From: Flavobacteriales bacterium
Lineage (GTDB): Bacteria; Bacteroidota; Bacteroidia; Flavobacteriales_F; PHOS-HE28
Assembly (NCBI GenBank): GCA_041391785.1
Contig: JAWKNI010000015.1
Coordinates: 8,398 to 72,397, forward strand
DNA length: 64,000 nucleotides
Reading direction: 5' to 3'
The notes under the pieces are model-generated. The model searched no databases. It saw only the letters and a program-made list of their open reading frames with translations, and was not told the origin of the DNA. Numbering within the stretch: the stretch's first letter is position 1; the number at the start of each line of letters is the position of its first letter. Shown one piece after another: positions 3,716 through 8,194 of the stretch. The position numbers were made by a program, and so were the translations under genes.

Positions 3716-4201
3716 CTACCGCCACAAACTATCCAGCACCCACGCGCTTTTCCCATCATCAAAGGAGAAAGGAGATGCCGGTCATCACGCCCATCCGGCC
3801 AATGACGCATGCCTTGGCCGAAGTTGACCACGAAGAACTCCGCCTTTCCTGGGGTGAGCGTGCCGAAGATGTTGAGGTAGCGGAAGTGCTCGCCTCCGGT
3901 TTGAGCACCCGCCTCCGACAGGCGGATACGATGCTAAACGGATGCATGCTCCATGTTGGCCGGCAGCTCGATGTGCGGGAACTCATCATGCCTGCCGATG
4001 TACACTGTGTCCGGGAGCCATCCGTCGCGTGCGCGCAATGCGTTGGATGTACGCGACCACCGCGGCGCCGTATACCGCAGCCGTATCAACAGACCGTTCC
4101 GCTGAGGAACTCGGTGCAGGTACTTGTTGCGAAGCGTCATCGTGCCGTGGGCCGCACGCCGCCAACAGCAGAACGAGCAACCAAGGCCGGACGGTTCTCA
4201 T
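3716..4201 (-). CDS. Putative lipoprotein, broken by several indels
   Basis: Lipobox WLLVLLLAAC. Frames join to ...DGWLPDTVYIGRHDEFPHIELPAN...GGEHFRYLNIFGTLTPGKAEFFVVNFGQGMRHWPDGRDD...FDDGKSAWVLDSLWR*. Confidence 0.55.
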
Positions 4202-4213
4202 GACAGGACAAAC

Positions 4214-5046
4214 TCACAGATTGCAGGGCTGCAGGGTCGCCGAAACGGCAGACCGCTGCGGTGGTTTGCGGGGAAGCCCTGCGGTGGACTTACGATCCGC
4301 ACGTGCCGCATCATCGCCCCAACACCAACCGATAGCCGAGGTCGAGCGCGTCCGTTCCGAGCAACATGCCGTATCGCTCTTTCCACGCCGCCGCTGCGCA
4401 AATCGGCAGCCAAGCGTTCCAAGGTGGCGGACAGATCGCCGACCTTCCAGAAGGACGAGATCGCCGAGCGCACCTGCGATCGAGATAGGCTTCGGGTCGC
4501 CGCCAGTAGGCACACAGGAAGCCATCGGTGCAGTCGTGGCGGAACGGGGACCGGCGCTAATGTGACCGGTCCAAGCCATTGCTGGTACAGGTTCATGGGC
4601 GGCATCTGGGCCTCGTCCAAGGCGATCAACTCCGGGATATAGTCGTATTAACCAGAAACCGCGGAACGCCGATCAGGTGAGCACCACCGGGCCACGCGTC
4701 ACGCGGCGCAACTCGCGCAGACCCTTGCCCTTGTCCGACCAATGGTGTACGGTGAGCACGGCCATGGACGCATCGAACGTGCCATCCGCGAAGGGCAGCT
4801 CCTCAGCGCTGGCTCGATCACCGGCGCAGTACCCGCGCGGCGTTGCTCGGATCATCTCCAGGGAAGGCTCCACCGCCGTAACGTCCCTGTCCGCTGGCTC
4901 ATACGAGCCCGCACCGGCACCTACATTGAGCACCGCGCGCGAAGTGGTCCCAGCGCGGCATGCATCATGGCCGCGATCCGCGGGTCCGGCTTGCGCAGTT
5001 CGGCGTAGCTGATGCCGATGGTGTCGTGATCAAGCTCATCGCGCAT
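4214..5046 (-). CDS. Class I SAM-dependent methyltransferase, frameshifted (3' end uncertain, ~4214-4310)
   Basis: Joined frames give DTIGISYAELRKPDPRIAA...VLNVGAGAGSYEP...VEPSLEMI...ASAEELPFADGTFDASMAVLTVHHW...YIPELIALDEAQMP...VRSAISSFW...DLGYRLV. Confidence 0.8.
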
Positions 5047-5327
5047 CGAAGCTGACTTTCCAAGGTGTCCAGGTGTCGCGGATGGAATCGCCGGAGGCTT
5101 GGGAGACACCCTTCGGTGGTCTAAGTGCAGCGGACCGACCCGCGGGGTTGGGAGGACAATTCTGCCGTGGTCGAAAACATAGCCAACCACGGCGGGCCAG
5201 TCACAGGCTGTCGAACACCGTTCAGGCAGGACCCCAACAAGGGGAGCTTGGAAAGTCACAGGTGGCCCGCCGCCCGCTTTCCCAAGCCCGCCCGCGCGGA
5301 ACACTTGCGACAATGAGGGGGCAGTCA

Positions 5328-7154
5328 TCAACGCCTAGGACTAGATAACCTAGGCTTGTACGGCTCTAACCTAAGACGCTGACCACGCACGTACAACTCT
5401 CGTTCACCGTGTAACAGAGATGCTGCAGAGTGGATATTCACAAACGTGACAAAGGCAAACCGTGTCACGAAATGTGGCTGAGCCTTGGGTAAATCAATTT
5501 TCGCGACCTCGCCAAATTCCTCAATCTGAGCTCGCAACTCCTCTTGGGTTATGTCATGGGGCAACCCAAAACCACAACTTTAGATGGGTCAAGTTCCGCG
5601 GCCTCCAACGCCTGCGTTCCTTGATTGGGAACTTGAATTCGAAATCGTGGAATTTGACCCTTTGGTTTTCCAGATTTTTTAGCCAATTGGGTCGCCTGAG
5701 GATTGGTATATTTCAAGAAGAATGCCACTGTTCCTCAGGCTAGTAACCTCACGATCATAGGTATCTCGGTCTTCCGTGTTGATTGTGCTGATAAATATCC
5801 TGAGGGCAAGCGCACGATCATGCATTCCTGCAATAATGATTCTTTGCTGTACCTTTGGTAAGCGTGTGTGAACTAAAGACATCCAGCCAAGCCAGTTGTT
5901 GAGGAGAAAATACCGACCGTTGATAGAGGGTCACTGTAAACGAAGTCGAATCTGTTTCCAAATCCGGCTTTTGCAAGTCGCTTTCTTGCATCAACTGAAA
6001 TATCCTTTTCATCCCCTCCCCTTAACTCGCGCATGTACCTCGCTTCCCGCAATGTTCTCGCCACTAGGGCATTTCTCGATTCATGCGCACCTTCCAAACG
6101 TTTAAGGAGATCAATGGTTAGCGTAGTCAGCAACGCACCAGGGCTCTTAATCTCCATCCTATCATCAAAGATAAAACAGTCAATGCCAACGTGAGTACTG
6201 TAATCCCTGTGTGCAATAGCATTTACCAAAGTCTCGCGGCATGCCCACTCTGGGAAAAGGTACCTATGCTCAAACCTAGTATCCACTCCGAGATCTGTGC
6301 GGTAGGCCAGCGATGGCCTCAGGGCCTCCCCATGACCGCGTGAGCAATTCAACGACGTTCCTTGAATCAGTTCATCTGAAACAACGTTATAATCAAGGCC
6401 AGCCTTTTAGGTGTTTCCACGAACACGCAGGATTCTTACTTGGCTCCGAGGATGCCATCGATGTATTGCTTTGCCAAATACCAAAACCGCAGCACGACGC
6501 AAGCGCAGTCCCCCGGCGCCATACTCTGCTAGTCCAATTTGCTGGAGGTACTTCTCGGGGGTAATGCCAAAGGTGATATCGACGCTCAGCTCCTCACCAG
6601 AGTCAGGTCAAGATCAGAAACTGAAGCGTCATCGATGAATTCTGAGTCATAGGCGCGACCTGCTCTCCTGCCGCTCAAACACAATTGAACCAACGCTTTC
6701 GGGCACCGTTTGCAAATCGGAACGACGAACGCACCTCCCATCCGGCAACTGGAAAATCTGAGTCGTCCCCTTGCCCACGGAAAAATAGAGCACCGTGTAC
6801 CCATCGACTACTAATCGATTGACATGCAGCAAGGTAGTTGAGACTCCGCATACACGTGAGTACTCACGGCTTTCAACATTACTTCAATATCATCATCGCC
6901 ATGTGGGATGCCGGTAACCGTCCCATCATCTTCCACCCCGATCACTAAAGCCACCGCCATCTGCATTAGGCGAACGCAACGAGAGCCTCACCAATATCCC
7001 GACAAATGGCTGTGACTCTTCGTGGGGTTTTACCTTCAGGCCTGCCTCCTCTAGTGCGCTCTTAAATTCCTGAAAATGGCTCTCTCGCCAAGCGCAATTG
7101 TATCCTGACTCTTTCAGTGAGCACAAGAACATCATCGACATCGTTGGACTTCAT
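5328..7154 (-). CDS. Schlafen/AlbA_2 domain + HATPase_c_4 (RecG-C-like) + wHTH-like region + C-terminal RRM; about ten or more indels
   Basis: Reconstructed from ATG 7154: ESHFQEFKSA...DIGEALVAFANADGG..VIGVEDDGTVTG (AlbA_2); FPEWACRETLVNAIAHRDYS...IFDDRMEIKSPG...SRNALVARTLR...YMRELGEGMKRIF (HATPase_c_4); KVVVLGLPHDITQEELRAQIEEFGEVAKIDL...RFAFVTF (RRM RNP2/RNP1). Confidence 0.75.
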
Positions 7155-7339
7155 GTCAGCCTCTGATTTCTAATTGACGCCAAAGTAGTCAAAGCCGCTT
7201 TGCTCCGAGTACAAGAACGTCTCGGGTCAGTTCATCCAGGTCACCACGCAGAGATATTCAGCCTATGGAACAGCCAGCGAAAATAAACTGGCTACGACGT
7301 CACCGGTCGCTTTACCGCTGAATCGGTGCCCAAGAAATC

Positions 7340-7472
7340 CTACCCGTGAGGTACATGCCCGCTTCCCCGTAGACCTTGCCGCTGCCACGGCCGCGAGCCG
7401 GGCCTCGCAGTGACAGAAATCTGGATCCTTCAGGTCCTTGATAGTAGACCGCTCGCCGGTGCTCTTCATTTC
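7340..7472 (-). repeat. Diverged non-coding copy of the carB 3' end with a 34-bp hairpin insertion
   Basis: Minus strand reads EMKSTGE-(A)VY-IKDLKDPDF [TGTCACTGCGAGGCCCGGCTCGCGGCCGTGGCAG, 7382-7415] xKVYGEAGMYLT..TAG, compared with car[32 protein letters not shown]. Confidence 0.85.
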
Positions 7473-7481
7473 GTGTTTGCG

Positions 7482-8087
7482 TCAACACTGCAGAACTAAG
7501 GACCCTCTGTTCGCTTCATACGTATTGCTGTTGCTTGGATAATCCAGTATCGAACTACCCTCCAGAACTCTCTGCAAGAAGCCCACTAACGTGACAACAG
7601 AAACTGCTCGGAACGCATGAAGATTTGTAGGAGTGGCGGAACGAGGGGATTCTGAGCGCCTTGACAACACCAATGGCCATATTCAGCATACCCTCCTGTT
7701 CATTCCTCCCGTTCTCAGTGGCAACATCACCAAACGATACTTCAGTGGAGCTCGAACGAGGTTCTTCGTCTTAGCGTCGTATTCGAATGAGAACGACCTT
7801 GACACAAGGTCGGGACAATTTACGCGACATCCAGGCCTGTCTTCTTTCTCAAAACAGCCTCAAAATCAATCAAGGCACTTCGCTGATTCGGTGAACTCGA
7901 CCTTGAGCAACAGTCTGAAGCGCCAGGTAGCTTCCGGTCAATATGCAACCGTCAGTAGATAGTCTCCGATAGTGCTGAGCCATTGCTCAACTGGCTTACC
8001 GCAATAAGCACAGAAGTTGAGTTCAGGGTTTGTCCGATCGAGCTTATGGCAATGCCAGCAAGGCGATGACGAAGCAGGTGTGGACAT
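7482..8087 (-). CDS. Small AT-richer cargo ORF with N-terminal Zn-ribbon (CxxC-x12-CxxC), frameshifted; extent uncertain
   Basis: ATG 8087 gives MSTPASSSPCWHCHKLDRTNPELNFCAYCGKPVEQW..., open to 7938. Further open stretches in other frames continue to ~7482. Confidence 0.4.
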
Positions 8088-8091
8088 GCCC

Positions 8092-8188
8092 TTACCTGCT
8101 CAAGTAAATTCCGGGCTCTCCCCACACACCTGCCTCTGCCACGCCTGCTTCAAGAGCAAGCAGGCTCGCAGTGACAGAACGGATCCTG
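8092..8188 (-). repeat. Second diverged copy of the carB 3' end with a 41-bp hairpin insertion
   Basis: Minus strand CAGGATCCGTTC (DPF) [TGTCACTGCGAGCCTGCTTGCTCTTGAAGCAGGCGTGGCAG, 8136-8176] AGGCAGGTGTGTGGGGAGAGC..GGAATTTACTTGAGCAGGTAA reads RQVCGES-GIYLSR*. Confidence 0.75.
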
Positions 8189-8194
8189 GCTTCA

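Follow-up and report, generated by a model that had tools for sequence, protein, structure and literature searches.

The locus analysed here raises the question of how single, unrelated genes come to be stacked behind carB, an essential housekeeping gene, in a region where no integrase is visible. It lies in a stretch of 64,000 nucleotides from a Flavobacteriales bacterium (positions 8398-72397 of contig C15 of genome G000), referred to below as the window; G numbers denote genomes, C contigs and L loci. In the window carB is on the minus strand, so that "downstream of carB" means descending coordinates, and the span that drew attention, 3716-8194, begins directly past the carB stop codon. A preliminary description had read this span as an integron-like string of co-oriented single genes. 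We propose that the locus is probably a weak, damaged example of a cassette array that occurs throughout the lineage, lacks an integrase and has its anchor in the 3' end of carB. In this genus, single promoterless genes of foreign origin are inserted immediately past carB, and each insertion leaves downstream of the new gene a relic of the last ~33 codons of carB, sometimes more, which gives the order carB-tail / gene / tail / gene / tail.

Copies of the carB tail across the genus

The last 99 nt of carB were searched against 132 genomes. A match was found in 100 of these, and about 66 of the 100 match two to eight times. At the peptide level, ~55 of 98 genomes match the carB tail more than once. 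As a control, the 3' end of carA gave more than one match in 2 of 105 genomes. The carB gene of the window is 82-88% identical in nucleotide sequence to that of ten loci of the same genus, and downstream of it only tail pieces align. The extra tails are present even where the assembly is one single contig (G039) or consists of two to six contigs (G051, G053 and G058 being among those with few contigs), and therefore are not joining artefacts.

The anatomy of the arrays was analysed in 24 related loci, counting cassettes of 200-3000 nt. These loci contain 63 extra tails, all in the orientation of carB, and 47 cassettes. The main open reading frame (ORF) is on the carB strand in 43 of the 47 cassettes and occupies a median of 91% of the cassette length. 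The median distance from the stop codon of the preceding tail to its start is 8 nt, often with an overlap as TGATG or ATGA, and its end lies a median of 5 nt ahead of the next tail. The GC content of the cassettes is 0.49-0.61, compared with 0.60 for the genome, and a single array can hold up to 5-6 ordered, co-oriented, single-ORF cassettes.

The cargo with named domains comprises Imm40, CdiI_2 (twice), DUF4926, Fic, the GmrSD N-terminal domain and the YhcG/DUF1016 nuclease (eight loci), the remainder being mostly lipoproteins and membrane proteins of unknown kind. From one genome to the next the cargo is unrelated, with 22 of 44 cargo ORFs being singletons. Where a cassette is shared, the homology spans from tail to tail and ends there. 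The position of a given cassette is not fixed: one that stands first after carB in L078 is in second place in L077, where an extra cassette and an ATG-bounded tail lie between, and the YhcG cassette is found anywhere from second to sixth, depending on the genome.

The carB-tail array is real and lineage-wide, and relatives carry different single-gene sets directly behind carB. A synteny comparison of this kind had been suggested in the preliminary description, and it gave the variable gene content with conserved junctions, here formed by the tails, that was looked for. The accompanying proposal of stepwise accretion, with the newest cassette next to carB, is partly supported: the comparison of relatives favours it, as in the shift of position between L078 and L077, and in the window a single gene is bounded by such junctions.

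No tyrosine recombinase is found near the array. There is no PF00589 match closer than 33 kb to carB in 20 genomes, and none on contig C15. In the window, Pfam searches of 3001-8300 gave no domain on the plus strand and no integrase or transposase domain on the minus strand, in agreement with what had been described. A Pfam analysis of the cargo ORFs identified no tyrosine recombinase; serine recombinases and DDE transposases were checked in these ORFs only, and none were found.

A tail search at the level of the order covered the same 132 genomes as the family-level search and gave no wider taxonomic range. In a separate set of more distant genomes labelled as Flavobacteriales, 2 of 75 loci have one gene and a carB-tail copy directly behind carB. 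These are L125 (8900-10540) and L153 (3322-4370), where carB has ~75% protein identity; the tail copy of L125 includes the terminator hairpin too.

The array in the window and its frameshifts

In the window the array consists of carB, an "empty" relic (8092-8186), one Zn-ribbon/Ymh cassette and a second relic tail (7339-7473). The coordinates of all features are collected in the table below. The carB 3' tail is thus present twice more downstream of carB, and there are no other copies in the genome. The motif CTGTCACTGCGAG similarly has two copies in the genome, both at this locus and each within a partial carB 3' end. These two junctions, with their hairpins, had been overlooked, and the earlier statement that no conserved junctions were present was wrong. 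It was correct that attC sites are absent, the boundaries being carB-tail copies whose hairpin H has no attC boxes.

The mini-ORF of the first unit has an ATG that overlaps the carB stop codon (TAATG), and at its end is a carB tail end with a different spelling. The same module is also found 3' of carB in G015, G041, G049 and G075. In both units a hairpin is inserted exactly between GGATCCGTTCT and AGGCAGGTG, which are contiguous in intact carB. The feet of this hairpin (H), GTCACTGCGAG...GTGGCAG, are conserved; its stem varies, the changes being fully compensated, and its position in the tail is always the same. With its flanks, the copy in the first unit (H1) has a predicted energy of -28.9 kcal/mol (z = -4.0). 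The copy in the second unit (H2) is damaged in the window (-20.8 kcal/mol, z = -1.0).

The variable slot of G000 extends over ~5047-8194 and coincides with a segment of low GC content. The GC content is ~0.45-0.54 at ~5340-8290, compared with 0.62-0.65 on the flanks, in line with the difference in base composition described earlier. The stretch from 2.6 to 8.6 kb is also the poorest in long ORFs in the whole of G000. A translation of the minus strand in three frames, followed by a scan of these frames against Pfam, bore out the presence of the Zn-ribbon, Schlafen-like/RRM (RNA recognition motif), methyltransferase and lipoprotein genes on the carB strand. It also revealed what had been missed: there is no intact ORF in the block, and the methyltransferase, Schlafen-like, Zn-ribbon/Ymh and lipoprotein genes are each spread over two or three frames. 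An alternative genetic code in which TGA encodes Trp (table 4) does not account for the short ORFs; the coding signal switches frame, and is not merely interrupted by stops. An explanation of the ORF-free stretch as RNA was rejected on the results of Rfam (0 matches at the gathering threshold) and ARAGORN (0 genes).

The same applies to carB, which is single in G000 and stands in its native upstream context. There is no second, intact carB in this genome; an ORF of 1075 residues at 55260-58487 was considered and proved to be a peptidase M1. Compared with six relatives, each of which has an intact gene of 936 residues, the carB of G000 has ~35 indels of 1-5 nt. Insertions and deletions are about equal in number and show no link to homopolymers, and the full length of the gene is kept. 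The substitutions unique to the window are distributed over the three codon positions as 24/22/31, with 50 non-synonymous and 27 synonymous, unlike the substitutions in the carB of the relatives, which show the usual excess at the third position. This even spread would fit either neutral decay or sequence error.

It is likely that the frameshifts at 3.7-11 kb are consensus errors of the assembly rather than real decay. This is favoured because carA is intact in G000, because the sole carB is in its native upstream context, and because insertions and deletions are balanced and all of 1-5 nt in a carB of full length. It is also favoured because there is a second frameshifted patch on C7, and because several of the closest named relatives are, judged by their record names, long-read metagenome-assembled genomes from activated sludge. 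The patch on C7 (G000:C7:129000-131500, L081) has XdhC_C split over two frames of the minus strand and Urate_ox_N over two of the plus strand, and adjoins an intact gyrB.

The alternative, that carB and the genes downstream of it are truly decaying pseudogenes, concerns the frameshifts only and seems to us rather doubtful. This carB could, for example, be a dead copy while a functional one lies in the 6% of the genome that is missing, or the damage could stem from mutagenic repair at a hot spot of recombination. The even spread of substitutions over codon positions and the excess of non-synonymous ones are as expected of a pseudogene, and the damage does not extend beyond the block on the carB strand at 3.7-11 kb, which is flanked by intact genes. 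Against this, the genome would have lost its only carB, in native context and with carA intact, by insertions and deletions in roughly equal number, all of 1-5 nt, and without any large deletion. Moreover, the number of indels is nearly equal to that of the excess substitutions, unlike natural decay, and the patch on C7 contains further frameshifted genes. The remaining chance that carB is truly decaying counts against our proposal for the locus.

Possible routes of cassette acquisition

We hypothesise that the arrays grow by recombination on the homology of the carB tail. The left crossover would fall within carB, and the right crossover between the relic tail of the donor and the functional tail of the recipient; such a route would require no dedicated linked recombinase. 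Expression of the cassettes would depend on read-through from carB and on translational coupling, and the median gap of 8 nt after the preceding stop codon fits either of these. The preliminary description had seen no terminator past carB, and none was found after the stop codon here: the 7 terminator-like sites present, compared with 5.3 +/- 2.4 in shuffled sequences, are not an enrichment, and none of them follows the carB stop.

The relics range from 32 to 519 codons, lengths of 32-45 being the commonest, with some of 57-144 and some of 403-519. Many have their left boundary at the ATG of Met904, others at residues 849-893 and up to residue 418. The last 300 nt of carB show a mosaic pattern of identity, with breakpoints at varied places. 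Within one array, functional and relic tails have 82% nucleotide identity, and their codon differences are synonymous in 197 cases and non-synonymous in 9. The identity is low and the differences are dominated by synonymous changes, and therefore the relics once were working tails, of different origin, and did not arise by local duplication. Constraint is slightly relaxed in the relics, 13 of 21 of which carry amino-acid changes, compared with 5 of 20 working tails (P = 0.026); this would fit a slow decay after displacement. The same excess weakens the idea that relic tails are peptides under strong selection in place.

It is worth adding that three loci have very long carB relics: L071 (G075:C1, residues 418-936), L067 (G109:C3, residues 534-936) and L031 (G015:C2, residues ~636-936). 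They lie 4-13 kb downstream of the working carB, to which they have 95-98% protein identity, with large cargo between. The working tails of different species are themselves ~81% identical in nucleotide sequence and nearly identical in protein sequence, with switches of Ser and Arg codons (AGC/TCA and AGG/CGA), and the tails seem to fall into two or more "spelling classes" that recur across genomes.

Homologous recombination is supported by the varying length of the relics, the mosaic 3' ends of carB and the lack of a linked tyrosine recombinase. As a mechanism we give it somewhat less than an even chance, and an unlinked site-specific enzyme a minor share; the remainder goes to other or mixed mechanisms. 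Several observations weigh against our proposal. Many relics start at the same base (the Met904 ATG, ATGAAGAGC) beside unrelated cargo, and the copy in L125 starts at nearly the same place. A shared start is what would be expected of a site-specific crossover, and homologous recombination alone does not account for it. The tails in an array are ~82% identical over 99 nt, which makes them a poor substrate for homologous recombination. Three kinds of palindromic insert are found in relic tails, adding CHCEARLCGPWQ (H), EEPAPxxDAGF (hp2) and SLPAGGR (hp3), and all three keep the reading frame, which hints at a function of the units beyond that of a scar. The data used, assembled genomes, showed no excised circle, strain-level insertion polymorphism or transcript. 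Finally, 14 of the 24 loci used for the anatomy were picked for having several tails, and the array sizes given above are biased upward as a result.

A more ambitious version of the proposal, which we offer tentatively, is that the carB-tail arrays represent a platform for gene capture of an undescribed kind. The tail of ~33 recoded, translatable codons would have three roles in it: it would be a portable recombination arm, it would keep carB intact, and it would act as a translational-coupling spacer for promoterless genes. Such a platform would be served by general recombination or by an enzyme that cuts at the Met904 codon, and the palindromes H, hp2 and hp3 would be functional.

Site-specific capture proper would require a recombinase acting in trans from an unlinked gene, at a site at or near the Met904 codon, on circular cassettes that carry a replacement tail and with the hairpins as part of the site. 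The likeness would be to an integron integrase acting on attI and attC, or to a tRNA-targeting integrase that restores its target gene. The sharp, recurrent left boundary would follow directly from such a mechanism, as would the fact that identity stops at the stop codon; the conserved feet, compensated stem and fixed position of hairpin H would be those of a site, and the low nucleotide identity of adjacent tails disfavours recombination by homology. We nevertheless consider it unlikely. There is no integrase within 33 kb in the 20 genomes and none in the cargo, left boundaries are also found at residues 849-893 and up to 418, and the carB 3' ends are mosaic with varied breakpoints. Many units have no hairpin at all, and the feet of hairpin H are shared with a dispersed REP-like (repetitive extragenic palindromic) family, which has other flanks in some genomes. 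It is possible that hairpin H is not a recombination site but a palindromic element of small size.

The 31-nt hairpin of G012 (GTCACTGCGAGCCGGCTTTGCGGCGTGGCAG) has the feet of the carB-tail hairpin and different flanks. At G012:C1:241379-243658 (L051 and L064) there are 15 copies of it, mostly with a spacing of 110 bp, and smaller dispersed sets are found in G051, G061 and G129.

That no capture mechanism exists, the locus being an ordinary strain-variable island and its tails chance scars left by a few illegitimate or unequal crossovers or head-to-tail assembler joins of strain variants, is very improbable: the window does have two relics and only one bounded gene, in a region of poor sequence quality where the contigs of several relatives end (e.g. 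G006 and G059), but extra tails occur in about two thirds of the genomes, including the single-contig and few-contig assemblies named above, cassettes are ordered and co-oriented with gaps of 5-8 nt, the carA control has no such copies, the tails are differently spelled and so are not recent local duplications, and the same cassette is seen with the same junctions in unrelated arrays.

Further genes of the slot and comparison with known systems

Of the four genes that had been taken for cassettes, only the Zn-ribbon/Ymh gene is bounded by tails. The Schlafen-like/RRM DNA lies past the last relic tail, and a distal junction is absent; this slot thus received it in a separate acquisition specific to the lineage. 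Close homologues of the Schlafen-like gene are absent from the genus, the best match being 37% identical and on unrelated contigs, and, given the frameshifts, this gene and the RRM may form one protein or two. At 6121-6556 on the minus strand it gives weak PADLOC matches to models associated with prokaryotic Argonaute (E 4e-10), which hints at a role in defence; PADLOC found nothing else in the minus-strand frames. In the spacer beyond, an element at 5256-5323 recurs near carB in G012 and G016.

The methyltransferase is ruled out as a cassette by synteny. Its orthologues in G006, G059, G100 and G114 are intact and 78-81% identical, and it is syntenic with the genes at 3.7-6.7 kb of C15; in G114 it is found on the carB strand at a distance of 17.6 kb downstream. 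It belongs to the conserved backbone, and the variable slot has its far edge here. The lipoprotein is probably also backbone, judging by its position and GC content alone.

Outside the array, the window encodes at 756-1664 on the plus strand a protein of 302 residues whose sole domain is a C-terminal Trans_reg_C (OmpR/PhoB type); a receiver domain is not recognisable. Next comes a protein of 443 residues that is sorted by the type IX secretion system and is convergent with the carB block. The tandem repeat at 3226-3674 has a unit of 236 bp with two inverted repeats, GGAGTCTCACAAATG...CATTTGTGAGACTCC and GTCACTCCGG...CCGGAGTGAC. Relatives of this unit are found on C13, C14, C2 and C5, and near carB in G009, and it looks like a family of miniature inverted-repeat transposable elements or REP-like elements.

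Features of the carB locus, in window coordinates and in the order of transcription of carB
Feature	Position	Strand	Remarks
carB	~8195-10998 (stop TAA 8195-8197)	-	~936 codons; short type without MGS domain; TIGR01369 in six frame pieces
Unit 1, "empty" relic	mini-ORF 8100-8195; full relic with own tail stop 8092-8186	-	directly past carB stop
Hairpin H1	8136-8175	-	GTCACTGCGAG-CCTGCTTGCTCTTGAAGCAGG-CGTGGCAG
Zn-ribbon/Ymh cassette	7474-8091	-	sole tail-bounded cassette; exactly between units 1 and 2; three frames; GC 0.50
Zn-ribbon ORF	7938-8087	-	CxxC...CxxC motif
Hypoth_Ymh match	~7640-7740 (core 7633-7734)	-	weak (E 0.033); just behind Zn-ribbon ORF
Unit 2, relic carB tail	7339-7473	-	from Met904 codon (ATGAAGAGC...); tail end GKVYGEAGMYLTGR and stop; hairpin H2 at 7382-7414
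Schlafen-like gene (AlbA_2-type motif) with HATPase_c_4	~5873-7154	-	PF13749 in two frames; several frameshifts; low GC
RRM_1	~5372-5567	-	PF00076, E 3.7e-07; surrounding stop-free stretch 5328-5564
GC-rich spacer	5047-5345		between low-GC island and backbone
Class I S-adenosylmethionine methyltransferase (Methyltransf_11)	4311-5046	-	PF08241; frameshifted
Lipoprotein-like ORF	3716-4201 (start 4201)	-	MRTVRPWLLVLLLAACG...; continues in other frames; end uncertain; backbone GC
Tandem repeat	3226-3674		1.9 copies of 236-bp unit, also dispersed in genome; outside array

If the arrays are as they look, there is a second route by which single accessory genes, here including toxin-immunity and defence-type ones, are collected and exchanged in bacteria that do not belong to the integron-bearing groups. 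Such genes would land at the end of an essential and highly conserved gene, with no visible integrase. This would explain "poly-immunity" and stacks of defence genes without mobile-element machinery, and repeated gene tails would provide a simple sequence signature for finding such slots in metagenomes. For the window itself, the result is one bounded cassette gene only, in a block whose sequence is unreliable throughout.

Literature searches for an island or cassette slot linked to carB found no published description. The arrays were compared with four kinds of known system. They resemble integrons and clusters of attC sites lacking integrases (CALIN) in having stacked, promoterless, co-oriented and mostly single-gene cassettes of lower GC content and mostly unknown function, bounded by repeats and variable between relatives. 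Insertion is apparently next to the anchor, and expression would be from upstream. The carB array differs in that no IntI-type recombinase adjoins it (PF00589 is absent on C15 and at least 33 kb away in 20 genomes), and in that the bounding repeat is the last ~33 codons of an essential gene rather than attC. Hairpin H is present in some units only, and its feet, GTCACTGCGAG and GTGGCAG, contain no RYYYAAC/GTTRRRY boxes. A CALIN has two or more attC sites and no integrase, whereas here attC-type sites are absent. The anchor is the coding end of carB and not attI/Pc.

The rAID-1 clusters of Bacteroidales carry at the 5' end a tyrosine recombinase that is XerD-like, followed by co-directional genes of low GC content (bioRxiv 10.1101/471110). 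The carB arrays are similar in being found in Bacteroidota, in their co-directional arrangement and skewed GC content, in their repetitive intergenic sequences and "integron-like" layout, and in a cargo of orphan immunity genes (here Imm40 and CdiI_2). They differ in having carB as the 5' gene, in the lack of a linked recombinase and in their repeats, which are copies of a gene tail.

Genomic islands and tycheposon-type elements integrate at the 3' ends of genes, be they tRNA genes or others, and leave the target partially duplicated. They are kilobases long, and carry or depend on an identifiable integrase. As in these elements, the carB array has direct repeats that duplicate the 3' end of the target, the target itself is restored intact, and serial insertions give tandem arrays. 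The units are, however, 0.3-2 kb long with one ORF, and encode no integrase.

In the C-terminal displacement of Rhs, CdiA and type VI secretion system effectors, new DNA recombines into the 3' end of the gene and the old end is pushed downstream. This generates ordered relics of variable length without a dedicated recombinase; homologous recombination has been proposed, and immunity genes are part of the cargo. The carB array differs in that the displaced part is not a variable toxin end with its immunity gene. The tails are conserved and encode the same peptide, the cargo consists of separate and independent ORFs, and the anchor is the gene of a housekeeping enzyme. An assembly by homology without a recombinase is supported here by the mosaic ends and the absence of an integrase, and opposed by the Met904 boundary and the 82% identity of the tails. 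What the two have in common is a series of ordered relic 3' ends, here of 32-519 codons, all in the orientation of carB and downstream of newer modules, together with immunity genes among the cargo and no linked recombinase.

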